Positions 4,521 through 48,783 of a stretch of 64,000 nucleotides of DNA are shown one piece after another (positions within the stretch are counted from its first letter, which is position 1; every line of letters starts with the position of its first letter). This stretch comes from a virus, in the IMG/VR virus record IMGVR_UViG_3300020183_000046, positions 14,326-78,325 of that record; one strand, given 5' to 3'. The notes under the pieces are model-generated. The model worked only from the letters and a program-made list of their open reading frames with translations, was not told the DNA's origin and ran no database searches. Both the position numbers and the translations under genes were made by a program.

Positions 4521-4523
4521 TAT

Positions 4524-14183: not shown

Positions 14184-14378
14184 TTACTTGATCCTTGATT
14201 CCAAATCGTTAATCCTATTGAATTCTTGATATGCTCGTTCAGATCTCTCTGAGAGGATATCAGATATATCATTTAGGATAATTTCATTTTCAATTTGCTC
14301 ATCCAGATAATTATCGATCGCTTCTTTCAGATACCTTTTACGATGCCATTCTGGAGTATATGGTTTGTAGTGTGTCAT
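14184..14378 (-). CDS. Hypothetical protein
   Basis: YKPYTPEWHRKRYLKEA; fills intergenic gap in operon orientation. Confidence 0.65.
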   Translation of the reverse strand: MTHYKPYTPEWHRKRYLKEAIDNYLDEQIENEIILNDISDILSERSERAYQEFNRINDLESRIK

Positions 14379-41636: not shown

Positions 41637-41673
41637 AAAAAAGTCCTCTGTTGTATTTATACAGAGGACTTTT
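41637..41673 (-). promoter_or_regulatory. Hairpin/terminator whose loop carries the late promoter TATAAATA
   Basis: AAAAGTCCTCTGT-tgtatttat-ACAGAGGACTTTT; TATTTATA at 41654-41661. Confidence 0.75.
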
Positions 41674-42180: not shown

Positions 42181-42891
42181 TTATTGTAAAAATGCATTAA
42201 ATGTTAGACGGTTAGTACTCCACTCTCCTTGTTTAAAATATGGAGAATGCCAAAGTCTTCCCTCATACAACAATACGGAATTATATTCATGAAGTTCAAC
42301 ATGATATCTTTCCCATTCTTTTGATTTATATTTTGATGGATCAAAATTAACAAAAGCATTAATATGATTTAGTGCTCTAGATGATCTGTAATTTTTATCA
42401 GAAGAAACAAATTCTTCACACAATTCAGTATTCCTAAAGAAAGCGGTTCCAGAATCTGTACCAACTAATTCTTCTGACTTATTCAAGCACAATACAGCAG
42501 CATAGTGAGTATCATCCGTGTGGGGTGATAGGCTACACATTCTACATTTTTCATTTACTTCATACATTTGAAAAGTAAAATCCGACATAGCTGGAATACT
42601 CATTACAGATCTACCAGCTTCAAAGTAAGTATGACAAGCAAATTTGAATGGCTCATTAAATTGTTTTGAGGTATGTCCAATTCTATGGACATATCCAGGT
42701 AAGTTTGTATATTCACCATTTAGCGTAGAAACATAATCACATGATAATGCATATGCTCTAACTGAATCTGGATTCTTGAAAAAATTTTTTATTTTGATTA
42801 TACGATTTTTACTCTTACCAATATGTGTTTGCTCAACATCCCAATCTCTAGGATGATGTACTTCTAATATATCTGGATTAATTACTTTCAT
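42181..42891 (-). CDS. 2OG-Fe(II) oxygenase, DUF6445-like
   Basis: I.NFFKNPD.VR, PG, PHTD, YAAVLCLN, GTAFF, YN..LLYEG...HS, RLT. Confidence 0.8.
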   Translation of the reverse strand: MKVINPDILEVHHPRDWDVEQTHIGKSKNRIIKIKNFFKNPDSVRAYALSCDYVSTLNGEYTNLPGYVHRIGHTSKQFNEPFKFACHTYFEAGRSVMSIPAMSDFTFQMYEVNEKCRMCSLSPHTDDTHYAAVLCLNKSEELVGTDSGTAFFRNTELCEEFVSSDKNYRSSRALNHINAFVNFDPSKYKSKEWERYHVELHEYNSVLLYEGRLWHSPYFKQGEWSTNRLTFNAFLQ

Positions 42892-44638
42892 TTCCAAAAT
42901 ACTCATCAACTACTTTAGTTTTCTCTAAGACCAAAACATGAATTCCATTCCACCAGTGGGTAGGATTTTCTATTATACCACTTAGAAGTTTTCTTTCAAA
43001 ATAACAAGTTAAATTATTTTCCTTTACGAATTGTACAGTTCCTTCAACAACACCATCAAAATTAGCATCATCCACAACCAAAATAAATTTATCATCTAAA
43101 AATGGTAAAATATGATTGAGGTTATTCATCTGCTCAATCATATCATGATTTGCATCATAGAAAACTACATTTGGTTTATATCCATCAAAGTCATCTTTAG
43201 TTAGTTCTTGAGCACTAGCTTTTATGAAAACGGAATTACCATTTTCATATTTTTCCCAGTGCTGAACAAGCATATCATATGGATTTGATATTTCTGCCCA
43301 TGAAACATGGGGCATCATGGGTTTACATTCTGGTTCAGAAAAATCGTCAACTCCAAAACATTTTGTAGCATTATTCATTCCTGCAGCAAAGAATGTACTT
43401 CCAATAAAAGTTCCAATCTCTAAGTATACTGAATCTTTATGCGAACATAAACTATTTAAAAAATGTCTAACTCTATCAGAGGTCAATCCACGTACAATAT
43501 AGTTTTCTGGGTTATAGTTTGAAGATCTTGTCAATCCATCATTAATTGCTTTTAATGTTCTCTTTGTAAATTCATCAACTTCAGTTGGTCTTTCATCTCG
43601 TTTGAGATGAGATTCAACAACAGCTTCACAGTAATTACAATCCCAGCAATTAAACTGGCAAGTTTTAATTTTTTCTCTCCAAATATCAATTGGTTTTTTC
43701 TCCATGGATAAATCTTCCATGTAATTATTAAAGGTTGGAAAAAGTAAATCATCTTCTTTTGCCCACCTTTCAACAATATCCATAGATTCTTTTAACTTCA
43801 TGGTGTTTTCTCTACCATGCATTTTAAATACATCAATACCTAAATCTAAAAATTCATTCCAGTCCTCTCTCCATGGTGGGAGATTTGCAGATTTTAATGC
43901 ATGTGAATTATCTTGAATATCCCAAAGAGCACATGAATTTGTACTAATTGGATCCATGAAATATTGAGGAATATTTTCAGTTCTAGTGTTATTAAAATGG
44001 TAGTGTTCATCCATCATGGAACATCCTCCCCAGCAACCCTCATTTGCCAAAAGAGAAAGTTCTACTGGTTTACCAATAGATGCACAGTATTCCTTAGATT
44101 TTTTAATCTTAAGTAAGGAATCTCTATCTCTCATTAAATCCCTATCGAGATTAATATAATGAAACCCAGCATTAGCTAGTGATACAATCTCATTTGCTTT
44201 AGTTACATTTCTCAGGATTGTATTTTTAATTTTAAGTTCTGGAAATTCTTTTTGTATAATGCCAGAAGCAACCCAACTGGTATGTGGAATAGTTGCTATT
44301 CTAACTCCATTATCATATAACTGTTTGAAGTTGTGTACAAATAGATCTAAATTTTCTTGGTCTGGTCTAACATAGATATTATTGAATGTTGCGGATAATG
44401 GAATTCCTGCTGCATCTGCAATAGATTTTGCATTATAAAAAAGTTGCACAATATCTCCAGCAAAAACATCTCCCATAGCATCATTAACAAATGGGGGCAT
44501 TCTTGATGTAAAATAAAGATCTACAATATAATCTTTATATTTTTTTAACCAAGGAACAAATACTGTCTCTGCAAATTTAGAATCAATCTTCGGATTTATT
44601 GGAAGACTGAAGACGAATTTTTTCTTTTGGGATGTCAT
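42878..44638 (-). CDS. Peptidase-U32-family Fe-S protein fused to a class I SAM methyltransferase
   Basis: LDRDL.RD, LLANEGCWGGC, NSC, IDVFKMHGRE, CQFNCWDCNYC; then YLEIGTFIGST, VDDFS, FYDANH, VVDDAN. Confidence 0.8.
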   Translation of the reverse strand: MTSQKKKFVFSLPINPKIDSKFAETVFVPWLKKYKDYIVDLYFTSRMPPFVNDAMGDVFAGDIVQLFYNAKSIADAAGIPLSATFNNIYVRPDQENLDLFVHNFKQLYDNGVRIATIPHTSWVASGIIQKEFPELKIKNTILRNVTKANEIVSLANAGFHYINLDRDLMRDRDSLLKIKKSKEYCASIGKPVELSLLANEGCWGGCSMMDEHYHFNNTRTENIPQYFMDPISTNSCALWDIQDNSHALKSANLPPWREDWNEFLDLGIDVFKMHGRENTMKLKESMDIVERWAKEDDLLFPTFNNYMEDLSMEKKPIDIWREKIKTCQFNCWDCNYCEAVVESHLKRDERPTEVDEFTKRTLKAINDGLTRSSNYNPENYIVRGLTSDRVRHFLNSLCSHKDSVYLEIGTFIGSTFFAAGMNNATKCFGVDDFSEPECKPMMPHVSWAEISNPYDMLVQHWEKYENGNSVFIKASAQELTKDDFDGYKPNVVFYDANHDMIEQMNNLNHILPFLDDKFILVVDDANFDGVVEGTVQFVKENNLTCYFERKLLSGIIENPTHWWNGIHVLVLEKTKVVDEYFGNESN

Positions 44639-45359
44639 ACTTCACTTCAGGTAATGTTGGTTTTTGGTCAGTCAATTCAGACCCATTAATTTGTGGAGGT
44701 CTAAAGTCTTCAAGTTTTCCATTCAATATAGATTGCATAGCTGGTTCCATTTGTTTTTGCATATTTCCAATACCAGCACGAAGGAGAGATGAATGATGAA
44801 CGGCTCCAGATAAAACTTGAATTTGATCTTCTGGTTGCATGTTCATAATTGAATCCATGTTTCCACTTCCAATATTCCCAAAGGAAATGATATCAACGGC
44901 AGCTTGTTTTGCCATTCTACTGATCCAATATTTACGATCCTCTTCTTCATTATTTTTCAAATAGTATTCTTTACCAAGATTGGGATCGATATCTTTCTCT
45001 AATTCTTCTACGAAGTGCTCAACTTCTTTCTTGATAAGTCTATATTTCTGTTCCCAGATAGATTTATCATAGTGAGCTTTTTCAAGTTCGATCGCAATCA
45101 TTTCTTTCTCAAGATCGTCTTGCTCTAATTTTAAAGCTCTTTCTAATTGTTTAATCTGAACAGTATTTTTCTTCAGACGATATTCAAGCTCTACCCTACT
45201 ATTATCTCTCATCTGGAGTTCAAGAAAAGCTTGTTGAACTCTTTTGAATGGAGTTATTTGGGATCCACAAACAAAATTTTGATTTTGGTATCTTGTTTGC
45301 CCACCCTCTAATTTGTAAGATAATTCAATCCAAGATTTTTCAGAATCCGAAAGTTCCAT
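44583..45359 (-). CDS. Coiled-coil hypothetical protein of the U32 cassette
   Basis: YQ..NFV..SQITP...QQA.LEL; YWI.RMAKQAA.DI...G.IG.GNMDSI. Confidence 0.75.
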   Translation of the reverse strand: MELSDSEKSWIELSYKLEGGQTRYQNQNFVCGSQITPFKRVQQAFLELQMRDNSRVELEYRLKKNTVQIKQLERALKLEQDDLEKEMIAIELEKAHYDKSIWEQKYRLIKKEVEHFVEELEKDIDPNLGKEYYLKNNEEEDRKYWISRMAKQAAVDIISFGNIGSGNMDSIMNMQPEDQIQVLSGAVHHSSLLRAGIGNMQKQMEPAMQSILNGKLEDFRPPQINGSELTDQKPTLPEVKYDIPKEKIRLQSSNKSED

Positions 45360-46272
45360 AAGCTAGTTCTCCATCAATTCGCTTTCCATTAGAATCGATT
45401 CTTCCCAGCATTTCTGCCTGCTTTATTGGCATACCTACATTCAAGTAATCTTCATACAAGATGTTGATATCCCACATATTATCACAGTTTTTAAACTGAG
45501 AACGAATCGCATGATATTTGCCCAACAAAGAGGCATAATCTATAAGATATTTATCATGATGATCAAGCACTCTTTTTACTAAAACTTCCTTTGCCATTCC
45601 TCTAGTCATGCAAAGAATATCTAAAAATGGAGTCTTTGCTTCTTCATTTTCTTTATATTTTCTTGCTTCTTCTAACTGATAAATCCAAGATTCAGTTTCA
45701 ACATCGCAGCAATTTTTAAAATTTTTAAATCGTAAATCAAATTCATGCTCAATAACTAAGATTGCTTGCTTTTTCATGAAAGAAATTGCAAGTTGAATAT
45801 TTTCTTTCGGTGTAATTTTCTTTACTTTTTCGAATTTGAGCTCTCCAGTATCAGTCATTACTTGCTCATATTCTTTGTAATGAGCTCTAGTTTCCCCCTG
45901 AAATCTTACTCCATGAGTAAATTCTTTTTCTGGAATCTCGACATATCTCCTAAAAGATGATTTGATTGTTTCAAAAACAATTTTATTCATCTTGATTGTA
46001 GAGACATTACAAAAATTATATAAAACAAAGTAAGTAGTTTCGTCGGCTTTAATGTCAGCCAACCTCAAAGCATCTTCATGGATCATCATGTAGATAAACC
46101 CTTCTTTGATCTTCTCTTTATCCTTAATAAATTTTCTTGTCTCTAATTCTAAAGGATGCTGTGGTTCATATTTTGGACGTAAAAAATCTTCCTCTTGAAT
46201 TAAATCTTGAGGGATTCTTTCCTTCCAAGCAACATCAAATGATTTTTCTTCTATAAAATTACTTGTTTCCAT
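45340..46272 (-). CDS. Hypothetical protein; C-terminus resembles tail-fibre-assembly helical domains
   Basis: E.ESW..QL.EA......TPFL..L...RG.....LV..VL pattern. Confidence 0.65.
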   Translation of the reverse strand: METSNFIEEKSFDVAWKERIPQDLIQEEDFLRPKYEPQHPLELETRKFIKDKEKIKEGFIYMMIHEDALRLADIKADETTYFVLYNFCNVSTIKMNKIVFETIKSSFRRYVEIPEKEFTHGVRFQGETRAHYKEYEQVMTDTGELKFEKVKKITPKENIQLAISFMKKQAILVIEHEFDLRFKNFKNCCDVETESWIYQLEEARKYKENEEAKTPFLDILCMTRGMAKEVLVKRVLDHHDKYLIDYASLLGKYHAIRSQFKNCDNMWDINILYEDYLNVGMPIKQAEMLGRIDSNGKRIDGELAYGTFGF

Positions 46273-46405
46273 CTTTATTCTTAAGTTCTTCTATTTCTTT
46301 TTTTAGATTTTCTACTTCTAACTTAAGATATTTAAATTCTTCATATAGAACAAAATCTGGTCTATTGAAAAACATATTATTACTACTTCCAGTTTTTGAT
46401 GACAT
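46259..46405 (-). CDS. 48-aa coiled-coil peptide (not in ORF track)
   Basis: MSSKTGSSNNMFFNRPDFVLYEEFKYLKLEVENLKKEIEELKNKDGNK; TAATG overlap upstream and 14-bp overlap downstream. Confidence 0.6.
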   Translation of the reverse strand: MSSKTGSSNNMFFNRPDFVLYEEFKYLKLEVENLKKEIEELKNKDGNK

Positions 46406-47835
46406 TACTGATACCTCCTACCAGTTACTGCAAATGCACCACTCACACATGCTCCAGAAGATTGCCCTTGGTGACCTTTTGGCTCGGACTTAAATCCAAG
46501 AACAATATCAGAATCATTAGCATAAAAACGCTTCCACGTCCTATTGTTCTGATAGTTTCCTCCAGCATCTCCATAATTTCCTAAGCAATATCCCCAGTCT
46601 TGTCCCTCTTCCATGTTTTCTTCTCCACTTGCAACATCTTTTTGGTTGAATTGTGATCCAATAGTAGTCGCAGTGAGATCATTAAATTTAATCCAAGGTA
46701 AAGTTACGTTTGCTCCAGCTCCATGATAGCAGTGACCCCATTTAGATGAAAGATTTTTTTTCCATCCATCATTAGTTCCCCAGCTAGTCAAGGTGTAACT
46801 AGTAACACTTTCACTACTAAATGTGACATAAACTGCATTTGAGTTATCTCCAAACAAATATCCTCTAGTTTCCCCTTCGCATCCAGTGGCATTACCATTA
46901 GTAAATCCACCAGCTAAACGAGTTGACATTTCAGTAATAAAGTTTAATCTTTGAATACTTGCTGGTCCACCACCAGCAGTATATCCTCTTTGAGTCACAA
47001 AACCAGAAACAGAACCTGGGTCGTCAGTACTATCCCAAGTATCCATGGAAGCACCGAGACTATCTGGAGTAGTGCTATAAGCGTCTCCGTGACCTGGACT
47101 GCCATTCGGACCAAATGTTCTATTCGTTCCGTTATGTAAGTTTATACTAGAAACAGATGCACCAGATCCACCGTATGCGTTTTCTGTTCCAAATACATAT
47201 CCATTAAAATCTCCAAAGTTTCCATCTACATACGATGCTGCTCTATCCAGCTGATCACCGCGAGAAATAGTAATATCGGTTGCATGGAAAGTTTGATTTA
47301 CAGTTCTCCATGGATTTGATCCACGGTATCCACCGATCAAAAATCCATGAGTAAAAATACTTCTATATCTAAAACTTGATCCAACAGTAATATTATATAA
47401 TGCCCCAGTAGAATCATACCACTGACCAGTTCCAGTATAGGGCAAATAATATGCACTAGATATTGTTGGATTTTGCCCTCCAGCAAGAGTAGTTGTTGAT
47501 GGAGTGGATCTATACGTACCAAATTCATTTGAAAATGTTGTTAAACTCCCACCAGTATTCGGTCCTGTTGGTTGAGTTGCCCAATATGCTCCAGCACCAA
47601 CACTTTCATTTGGCACAGCATTAGCCCAAAAAGCATTTTGTCCATCTGACATCAATACCGATCCAGCAGTTGCTGGAGATTGATTTGGGATTGCTGCAAA
47701 TGGTTGACCGTTTTGAAGTAACTGACCCGTGAAGTTAATATTTCCAGTTACATCAACATTTTTTGGAATAGCTACTGTGGTCCCACCGCTGGTTAAAGTA
47801 TTGGCTTGTACAGTAGTGGTAGTTACCTGAGACAT
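46405..47835 (-). CDS. Tail-associated protein with a six-blade Kelch-like beta-propeller
   Basis: Fibre-like N-terminus (VDVTGNINFTG.L.QNG, G.VL.SDG...W); six GY..G(G)-type repeats; ends PKGHQGQSSGAC. Confidence 0.7.
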   Translation of the reverse strand: MSQVTTTTVQANTLTSGGTTVAIPKNVDVTGNINFTGQLLQNGQPFAAIPNQSPATAGSVLMSDGQNAFWANAVPNESVGAGAYWATQPTGPNTGGSLTTFSNEFGTYRSTPSTTTLAGGQNPTISSAYYLPYTGTGQWYDSTGALYNITVGSSFRYRSIFTHGFLIGGYRGSNPWRTVNQTFHATDITISRGDQLDRAASYVDGNFGDFNGYVFGTENAYGGSGASVSSINLHNGTNRTFGPNGSPGHGDAYSTTPDSLGASMDTWDSTDDPGSVSGFVTQRGYTAGGGPASIQRLNFITEMSTRLAGGFTNGNATGCEGETRGYLFGDNSNAVYVTFSSESVTSYTLTSWGTNDGWKKNLSSKWGHCYHGAGANVTLPWIKFNDLTATTIGSQFNQKDVASGEENMEEGQDWGYCLGNYGDAGGNYQNNRTWKRFYANDSDIVLGFKSEPKGHQGQSSGACVSGAFAVTGRRYQ

Positions 47836-47841
47836 GATTTA

Positions 47842-48168
47842 CTACTCGGGTTTTGGATATTTTGCCTTAATGCTATTTATTGTTTCTTTCCAAGCATCAA
47901 TATCATGATAAATCATATCAAGTTGTTCTTCAATTGGAGGATACTCTGACTTTCTAGATCTTTGATATCTAGCATTAGTATATTCCAACTCTAATTTTTT
48001 TACTTCTTGGTTTATTTCAAATTCTGAAGGGCACTCGCTATCATTTTCAGGTAACCAATTAATTCCTTCATATGAATTATTTTCCACAATCCATTTTGAT
48101 CCTGGTCTGAGACTTTCTAAAGCCAGGGCAATATTAATTCTTTTACCATCATCTCTAATAATTGTCAT
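47842..48168 (-). CDS. XkdW-like / tail fibre assembly protein
   Basis: AL.SLRPG.KW...I.W...P...EI; YQR.R..EYP.IEEQLDM.YHD...W...I..IK.KYPKP. Confidence 0.75.
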   Translation of the reverse strand: MTIIRDDGKRINIALALESLRPGSKWIVENNSYEGINWLPENDSECPSEFEINQEVKKLELEYTNARYQRSRKSEYPPIEEQLDMIYHDIDAWKETINSIKAKYPKPE

Positions 48169-48752
48169 ATTCTAATCTCCCATATTTGAATATAATTTGA
48201 TCCCCATCCATAGTTGAATTCACCAACTCCAGCATAAGGAGTAATACCAAGAGTAAATGTAGTTGAATTTTTATTTACAGCTGCGACTGATGTAAATACT
48301 CTAATTTCAGAGTGATGATTTAGTGCCTCTCCTTTATAATAAAAATCAAGAGAACTTCTTTGAAATGATGGATTTACAAAAGTCCCATCTCTTTTTAAAT
48401 ACCCAGACATACCGAATCCACCATTAGATCTAGTTTGACACTGTGCAAAAATAACCAATTTACTATCAGAATATTTTGGCGTCATAGAAAGTGATACTGG
48501 AGTATCATAATTAGTTGCATCTGCAATATTCACATAGTTATCATTAGTAGATGGGACTATATAATCAACCATCTGTACGACACTTCCAGAGAACAAATTT
48601 GCCCCAGAAGATGTTTGTAAATTATCAGTTCTTACTGTTCCAGAAGTAAGAATACCACCAAAGTCAACATTTCCAGATGCATTTAGCTGCAAAAATGGAG
48701 TTGAAGCTCCAGCAGAGACGTGTTTGATTCTATCAACTCTAAGCTCAGACAT
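48165..48752 (-). CDS. Small tail-fibre tip protein
   Basis: MSELRVDRI, GSVVQ, ..TPK.S.SK..I, C-terminal I.EI. Confidence 0.7.
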   Translation of the reverse strand: MSELRVDRIKHVSAGASTPFLQLNASGNVDFGGILTSGTVRTDNLQTSSGANLFSGSVVQMVDYIVPSTNDNYVNIADATNYDTPVSLSMTPKYSDSKLVIFAQCQTRSNGGFGMSGYLKRDGTFVNPSFQRSSLDFYYKGEALNHHSEIRVFTSVAAVNKNSTTFTLGITPYAGVGEFNYGWGSNYIQIWEIRI

Positions 48753-48775: not shown

Positions 48776-48783
48776 TATTTATA
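48776..48783 (-). promoter_or_regulatory. Late promoter TATAAATA for the tail-tip / U32 cassette operon
   Basis: Exact motif overlapping the stop codon of the large fibre gene. Confidence 0.8.

Follow-up and report, generated by a model that had tools for sequence, protein, structure and literature searches.

Members of the U32 superfamily have only recently been recognised as O2-independent iron-sulfur (Fe-S) hydroxylases. Their hydroxylation chemistry is described as prephenate-dependent and, to our knowledge, just three classes of substrate are known for them: ubiquinone precursors, U34 of transfer RNA (tRNA) and C2501 of 23S ribosomal RNA (rRNA). The present study concerns a gene that joins a divergent U32-like barrel to an O-methyltransferase, encoded in a fragment of a T4-like cyanomyovirus (IMG/VR record IMGVR_UViG_3300020183_000046, positions 14,326 to 78,325); this whole stretch of 64,000 nucleotides (nt) is referred to below as the window. 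All U32 proteins of defined function are hydroxylation factors (10.1101/587956, PMC6599085). They bind a [4Fe-4S] cluster through conserved cysteines, spaced as CX6CX15CX3/4C with variants in UbiU and UbiV, and the proteins are needed for the O2-independent hydroxylation of aromatic or pyrimidine carbons (10.1101/587956). In Bacillus subtilis the U32 genes trhP1 and trhP2 share one operon with trmR, which resembles catechol O-methyltransferase (COMT); COMT-like enzymes of this kind O-methylate the products of the U32 proteins, TrhO-TrmR fusions exist as well, and TrhP requires a C-terminal motif (PMC6599085). The phage gene is similar to this yrrM-yrrN-yrrO operon and to the eukaryotic TrhO-TrmR fusions, which produce 5-methoxyuridine at position 34 (mo5U34), in coupling a putative hydroxylase to a COMT-like O-methyltransferase. 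However, the substrate of those systems is tRNA and their hydroxylases are of the canonical U32 or the rhodanese type, whereas the phage gene has fibre-like and helical partners in a late module.

Nearly all genes of the window lie on the minus strand, and the closest cultured relative of the region is Synechococcus phage S-CAM4 (Kyanoviridae); a megablast search of the phage records did not find a near-identical record. Every motif that the earlier note had read in the fusion gene was found at its place in the open reading frame (ORF; Table 1). The whole protein matches phrog_1458, a family of unknown function, and phrog_36869 matches its N-terminal part only. Searching 50,697 phage records with tblastn located the protein in 126, with at least 80% query coverage in 123. 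The latter are cyanophages that encode the full-length fusion, and the remaining three are Ralstonia jumbo phages with the N-terminal domain only (by organism, 77 Synechococcus, 38 Cyanophage, 8 Prochlorococcus and 3 Ralstonia). A protein search gave 1925 clusters at E ≤ 0.001 among 8000 candidates scored, many of them from Tara and other marine metagenomes, and at least 580 confirmed IMG/VR stretches encode the fusion family. Since the full-length fusion recurs in the genomes of 123 cultured cyanophages and in viral contigs numbering in the hundreds, an assembly artefact is ruled out and the union of the two domains proposed in the earlier note is genuine. The family is labelled 'hypothetical' in every record seen, and a literature search that combined U32 with cyanophage found nothing relevant.

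Residues 1–345 belong to the U32 superfamily, as follows from a fold match and from transitive profile homology. An AlphaFold2 model, made from an alignment of 59 homologues (A1; 22–46% identical to the query, with column identity averaging 23%), predicts alternating strands and helices followed by C-terminal helices, with a predicted local distance difference test (pLDDT) score of 92.1 and a predicted template-modelling (pTM) score of 0.89. In a structural search against representatives, the best match to this model is the U32 peptidase Mk0906 (5d88_A; Z 17.0, root-mean-square deviation (rmsd) 3.2 Å, 229 of 247 residues aligned), and the next TIM barrels are generic ones at Z ≤ 12.3, 4.7 Z units lower. 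Foldseek likewise ranks 5d88 first by TM-score (TMt 0.72), and among viral models, close homologues aside, the best match is a protein annotated 'Peptidase' from Escherichia phage OLB35. At the profile level the connection runs through a bridging U32 subfamily (L102–L105; alignment A5) of about 330–390 residues, found in bacterial metagenome-assembled genomes (MAGs) that also carry the new family. These proteins stand alone and, in contrast to the phage domain, score above the PF01136 (Peptidase_U32) gathering cut-off in their first half. Their second half reads 'LLAN-x-x-C-x3-C ... C ... IRPED ... GID-x-x-KI-x-x-R ... C-x3/4-C-x2/3-C-x2-C', with W or F preceding IRPED, and this is the architecture of the phage domain, including the third cysteine and the C-terminal four-cysteine knuckle. 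By hhalign, A1 matches the bridging proteins at 99.0% (E 3.4e-18, 302 columns that include both cysteine motifs), and these in turn match the four Escherichia coli U32 paralogues UbiU, UbiV, RlhA and TrhP (A2) at 97.8% (E 9e-13).

An exhaustive phmmer search with residues 1–370 gives 284 representative clusters, many of them stand-alone proteins of 330–450 residues; the 59 sequences of A1 are drawn from these. The sole invariant columns of A1 are seven cysteines, arranged as C202-x3-C206-x29-C236 and C327-x3-C331-x2-C334-x2-C337; since they are shared by such diverse homologues, the motifs are far beyond chance. Conservation is at least 90% for D40, N86, K138, T140, D165, R166, R170, E200, E211, H212, K272, G275 and R276. 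The three invariant barrel cysteines are located at the catalytic (C-terminal) face, where U32 proteins bind [4Fe-4S]. NEGCWGGC sits where the U32 motif 'HGALC-x6-C' belongs and aligns with 'LLAN.GC...C' of the bridging proteins, and KIEGR occupies the place corresponding to FKMHGRE in the motif order of the E. coli paralogues. The C327–C334 segment lies in a loop between two helices of the model, and the knuckle to which it belongs, also found in the bridging proteins, is predicted to be a second metal or Fe-S site. Compared with the U32 hydroxylation proteins (UbiU/UbiV, TrhP, also named YegQ, with B. subtilis YrrN/YrrO, and RlhA, also named YdcP), the phage domain has in common the TIM-barrel fold and the motif order 'L-x-R-[ED]-L', cysteine pair after the strand at residues 193–197, further cysteine and K-x-x-G-R. 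It differs in its extra invariant CX3CX2CX2C knuckle, in lacking a U32 C-terminal or RNA-binding domain, in being fused to a methyltransferase and in being phage-encoded.

Table 1 Features of the fusion gene and its module in the window (coordinates are window positions).
Feature	Position	Strand	Evidence
Next T4-type late promoter motif TATAAATA downstream, before the 1690-residue gene; marks the end of the unit	41654..41661	-	motif match
DUF6445 protein (w242), 2-oxoglutarate (2OG)-Fe(II)-oxygenase-like HxD...H signature	42181..42909	-	PF20043, 51.9 bits
Whole fusion ORF (P0001), 586 residues, ATG start: U32-like barrel, Cys knuckle and O-methyltransferase	42878..44638	-	phrog_1458, E 1e-239
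Class I S-adenosylmethionine (SAM)-dependent O-methyltransferase-type domain (Methyltransf_24), residues 376–573	42920..43513	-	PF13578, model, invariant residues
Divergent U32-superfamily TIM barrel and C-terminal helices, residues 1–345	43604..44638	-	model, 5d88 match, hhalign
CQFNCWDCNYC, residues 327–337: C-x3-C-x2-C-x2-C knuckle between two helices	43628..43660	-	all four Cys invariant; pLDDT 96 and 92 for the blocks covering residues 321–340
FKMHGRE, residues 271–277: K272-x-x-G275-R276, like U32 'KIEGR'	43808..43828	-	K272/G275/R276 at least 90% conserved
C236, third invariant barrel cysteine	43931..43933	-	invariant in 59 sequences
NEGCWGGC, residues 199–206: C202-x3-C206 right after the strand at residues 193–197	44021..44044	-	C202/C206 invariant, E200 conserved at 90% or more
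w258 (phrog_1409), acidic coiled-coil protein	44583..45359	-	56-nt overlap with the enzyme gene at its start
w310 (phrog_1604), acidic helical protein	45340..46272	-	position kept in viral loci, S-CAM4 and P-SSM4
w476 (phrog_1417), Gly/Ser/Thr/Asn-rich, fibre-like N-terminus, G-[YF]-x-x-G repeats	46405..47835	-	position kept in viral loci
T4-type late promoter motif TATAAATA, heads the unit	48776..48783	-	motif match

Database gene models of the family start about 49–54 codons late, as in S-CAM4 (C440309_103; L001 8001–8163) and P-SSM4 (PSSM4_035; L008 6001–6148), and the phrog_1458 profile begins only at residue 55 of the fusion protein. The omitted start (window 44477–44638, residues 1–54) contains the conserved residues F10, P13, D40, Y42, F43, T44, P49, F50 and D53 and makes up the first two strands of the barrel; counted from its true start, the gene shares 56 nt with its upstream neighbour.

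Residues 376–573 have a COMT/CCoAOMT/TrmR-type O-methyltransferase fold with intact SAM-binding residues, in agreement with the complete Rossmann methyltransferase that the earlier note had placed behind the barrel. The Methyltransf_24 search that the note had suggested also came out positive, at borderline strength: PF13578 covers residues 406–524 and, with a cut-off of 26.3, scores 25.1 bits when the whole protein is searched and 27.4 bits with the isolated domain, and most homologues carry a precomputed PF13578 annotation. Motif I reads YLEIGTFIGS (residues 405–414). In an alignment of 30 diverse viral methyltransferase-domain sequences (A6), the invariant residues are E407, G409 and G413 of motif I, D431 at the end of strand 2, F493-Y494-D495, H498, D523-D524-A525-N526 and W563-N564-G565. 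The model of the domain (pLDDT 92.9) has 8c9v (Z 16.1), MeT1 (6g7d; Z 16.0) and B. subtilis TrmR (5zw3; Z 15.7, rmsd 2.6) as its top structural matches, followed by a Coxiella O-methyltransferase and SpnH, and Foldseek returns mostly Mg-dependent catechol-type O-methyltransferases. RNA and precorrin methyltransferases score 1–2 Z units below the top O-methyltransferases, and TrmR, being one of several tied top matches, cannot be singled out from the others. Searches of the PDB gave no significant sequence match to any solved methyltransferase, and sequence and profile searches there with the fusion protein and with alignments A1, A4 and A6 returned nothing significant. The domain resembles TrmR (YrrM), COMT and CCoAOMT enzymes in its Rossmann fold, motif I and strand-2 acidic residue, carries invariant D/D/N-like residues, and differs from them in its fusion behind a U32-like barrel and in a metal triad that appears approximate only.

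Four genes make up the core of the module, namely w476, w310, w258 and, in last place, the enzyme gene. Across 80 viral contigs this order is kept wherever the contig has room, and w258 precedes the enzyme gene in nearly all loci that offer room for it. In the phage records w258 and w476 track the enzyme and w310 nearly does: w258 is present in 126 of the 50,697, with an organism breakdown identical to that of the enzyme, w476 in 123, with the same cyanophage breakdown, and w310 in 127, made up of 113 cyanophages plus short local matches elsewhere. These short matches, in 14 Helicobacter-associated phage records, concern residues 192–252 of w310. In the genomes of more than 120 cultured phages, all four module genes bear the label 'hypothetical'. 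The N-terminal fibre-like segment of w476 (phrog_1417 positions 1–58) recurs in w195, encoded at window 48165–48752, and six G-[YF]-x-x-G repeats, spaced about 45–70 residues apart, may form a propeller-like repeat domain in w476. Between w476 and w195 lies w108 (phrog_9114, window 47842–48168), a small protein that ends in Y-x-x-x-R-x-x-E-Y-P-x-x-E-Q-L-D. No family match or solved relative was found for w258 or w310, and PDB searches with w258 and w476 gave nothing; ESM Atlas searches with w258 and w310 produced weak leads only, to a tail assembly chaperone family (0.75) and, for w310, to HI1402_helical (0.89). Among 150 representatives, no w258-like or w310-like sequence is fused to a U32-like protein.

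In S-CAM4 the four-gene block is situated within the structural region; in P-SSM4 it is at a different genome position, with denV following the enzyme gene instead of DUF6445. The earlier note had pointed to an O2-dependent 2OG oxygenase as the neighbour of the enzyme. A DUF6445 protein with the HxD...H signature is indeed encoded next door, and also downstream of the enzyme in S-CAM4 and in about 50 of the 80 viral loci, but its presence is frequent rather than universal, as P-SSM4 illustrates. Two TATAAATA motifs delimit a unit that comprises, in order, w195, w108, w476, w310, w258, enzyme, DUF6445, w61 and w106. All seven matches to TATAAATA in the window (at 4521, 5125, 24181, 29379, 41654, 48776 and 58875) fall on the minus strand, which is the coding one, and most of them precede an ORF start by a few dozen bases. 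Judging from these promoter motifs, the module is probably co-transcribed late in infection.

Outside the cyanophages, a w258-like gene precedes the stand-alone U32-like gene of Ralstonia phage RP31 and those of two contigs, one of 6.4 Mb from Leptospirales (a chromosome) and one from Bacteroidota. The Leptospirales locus has a weakly w310-like gene directly upstream of the U32-like gene as well as a 1523-residue LamG/DUF6519 protein, and the Bacteroidota contig contains two w476-like genes. In RP31 (L009 5995–8068) and Leptospirales (L010 8001–10180) the stand-alone gene is followed by one for a transporter-like DUF401/CitMHS-like membrane protein, with which it overlaps in RP31; a collagen-repeat protein is encoded nearby in RP31, at 26.7 bits just under the cut-off. 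A further bacterial contig encodes a solute-binding protein behind the homologue and, two genes downstream of it, a Methyltransf_2 O-methyltransferase, and radical SAM/SPASM, flavin mononucleotide (FMN) reductase and ketoacyl synthase genes surround one bridging U32 gene (L103). A distant group of stand-alone proteins of about 430 residues occurs in uncultured viruses (A7; 80 loci, L106–L185). In 51 of the 80 loci a small w108-like gene precedes the U32-like gene, in 38 a Trp_halogenase-type flavoenzyme (366 bits) is encoded directly beside it, and in about 18 a 2OG-Fe(II) oxygenase lies between gene and halogenase. The halogenase-linked arrangement, in which oxygenase and halogenase come after the U32-like gene, lies near gp15 in uncultured marine T4-like phages (for example L164 6574–10444) and has no cultured representative in the phage collection; the 78-kb fragment of the phage record analysed here contains no halogenase. 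The recurring theme around the relatives is that of oxidative and methylating tailoring enzymes. One Deltaproteobacteria MAG has three paralogues of the new family (L012, L013, L014; L097), one of which lies beside an asparagine synthase and has a more canonical U32 gene (PF01136, 111.9 bits) 3 kb upstream.

Taking the domains together, we tentatively favour, at somewhat less than an even chance, a fusion protein that would hydroxylate and then O-methylate one and the same substrate. The barrel would bind one or two Fe-S or metal centres and, like UbiU/UbiV, TrhP and RlhA, could hydroxylate, independently of O2, an aromatic or heteroaromatic carbon, whose new hydroxyl would be O-methylated by the fused domain to leave a methoxy group. 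The DUF6445 oxygenase, so often encoded downstream, may share this substrate where O2 is available. If this mechanism is correct, our order of preference for the target is a residue of w476 or another late protein, then a small aromatic molecule, and RNA last. A protein encoded by the module or present in the virion, modified on an aromatic side chain and with w476 as the first candidate, would be a reasonable first guess and a small aromatic molecule a plausible second one; RNA or DNA bases seem unlikely.

Several observations weigh against the favoured mechanism. Pfam PF01136 matches neither the whole protein, nor residues 1–370 even at E ≤ 10, nor anything in the phage record from which the window is taken, so that the Peptidase_U32 search suggested in the earlier note came out negative; the same model has no usable match among the 59 homologues, only one of which gives a faint hit (E 0.033), and the NCBIfam models for TrhP and UbiU do not match the fusion protein. 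The phage domain also departs from the canonical four-cysteine pattern CX6CX15CX3/4C, with x3 instead of x6 in the cysteine pair, a third cysteine after 29 residues and no fourth barrel cysteine. Direct alignment of A1 with the E. coli U32 paralogues is suggestive at most (hhalign 66.9%, E 5e-5, 118 columns). For the second domain, the fold matches to O-, N- and RNA-methyltransferases are tied within 1–2 Z units. COMT-type cation-dependent O-methyltransferases have a D...D-N divalent-metal triad, which the phage domain appears only to approximate: D495...D523-D524-A525-N526 is invariant but the spacing differs (DDAN vs. DN). Finally, a subgroup of the distant viral relatives follows gp45-gp44-gp62-regA in the replication module instead, and the synteny with fibre genes might be a matter of where modules begin and end, not of a common substrate. 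The U32 assignment of the earlier note is therefore upheld at the level of the superfamily, by the 5d88 fold (Z 17.0) and the transitive profiles, but not with regard to PF01136 or canonical cysteine spacing. Given the missing PF01136 match and the non-canonical spacing, the phage domain is a remote subfamily and not an ordinary U32 member: a distinct branch with its own cysteine architecture that is invisible to curated models.

The neighbourhoods of the relatives raise the question of whether the substrate is instead a metabolite, with hydroxylation and O-methylation of a quinone-, indole- or phenol-type aromatic compound, as by UbiU/UbiV and UbiG, within a phage secondary-metabolite or cofactor pathway that also employs oxygenases and halogenases. 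Such small-molecule tailoring is unlikely in our view, although it has a precedent in UbiU/UbiV (10.1101/587956). In its favour are the solute-binding protein and phenolic-type Methyltransf_2 enzyme beside one bacterial homologue, the radical SAM/SPASM, FMN reductase and ketoacyl synthase genes around a bridging relative, the flavin halogenases and 2OG oxygenases adjoining the distant viral relatives, and the pairing of the stand-alone form with the DUF401 transporter-like protein in RP31 and Leptospirales. The cyanophage module, on the other hand, has no biosynthetic core genes, its obligatory partners are fibre-like beta-rich and helical proteins and not enzymes, and its context is late and structural.

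The divergence of the cysteines bears on a different alternative, which we consider rather unlikely. Here the barrel would not be a hydroxylase at all but a metalloprotein with a U32 fold, engaged in radical chemistry, in proteolysis or chaperoning of a fibre protein along the lines of the old 'U32 collagenase' view, or serving as a structural Zn or Fe-S module, and the methyltransferase would act independently. The barrel has just three of the four ligand positions of canonical U32 proteins, and the family escapes every curated U32 model; both points fit this possibility, as do the linkage to fibre-like genes and the collagen-repeat protein, albeit below the cut-off, near the RP31 gene. Against it, all U32 proteins of defined function are hydroxylation factors, and the repeated association with O-methyltransferases, in two families, agrees with a hydroxyl being produced. 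Regarding radical chemistry, C327-x3-C331-x2-C334 formally fits the radical SAM signature, but we reject that reading of the motif: it is located after the barrel and not after strand 1, its spacing varies in the bridging relatives (CX4CX2CX2C, CX3CX3CX2C) unlike that of strict radical SAM enzymes, and the Radical_SAM model PF04055 has no match.

The weakest of the alternatives, a phage TrhP-TrmR pathway in which the barrel would hydroxylate C5 of a pyrimidine in rRNA or in tRNA (U34 to 5-hydroxyuridine, ho5U) and the fused domain would make mo5U, retuning decoding during infection, can draw on the action of TrhP and RlhA on RNA, on the B. subtilis trhP1/trhP2-trmR operon and the hydroxylase-TrmR fusions (PMC6599085), on TrmR being among the three tied best structural matches and on the distant subgroup that adjoins regA and the clamp-loader genes, but it appears improbable, because the protein lacks a TrhP/RlhA-type C-terminal domain and any hit in Pfam or NCBIfam other than Methyltransf_24, is acidic (pI 5.2 as a whole and 4.9 in its methyltransferase domain), is encoded between late promoter motifs among structural genes in a window with no tRNA genes, has a distribution that tracks fibre-like and coiled-coil proteins, and matches TrmR no differently from sugar and catechol O-methyltransferases. 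These arguments are weak individually; for the same reasons, the tRNA/rRNA option that the earlier note had listed among possible targets is not favoured.

Returning to hydroxylation followed by O-methylation, with a protein as the target, the most far-reaching version is a long shot that we nonetheless find worth stating. The module could be a phage post-translational tailoring system that places methoxy groups on aromatic residues of the Gly/Tyr-rich w476 protein, aided by two helical helper proteins, and the relatives in uncultured phages might swap in flavin halogenases or 2OG oxygenases for other decorations. If true, U32 enzymes would gain their first protein substrate in w476, and a natural role would be suggested for the 'tryptophan halogenases' of cyanophages. 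In any case, the gene defines a large and abundant U32 branch in marine phages, with a seven-cysteine architecture, a built-in O-methyltransferase and a tie to a fibre-linked late module. Identification of the substrate would extend U32 chemistry to a new class of targets, and could reveal a modification that affects cyanophage particles or the infection of Prochlorococcus and Synechococcus.

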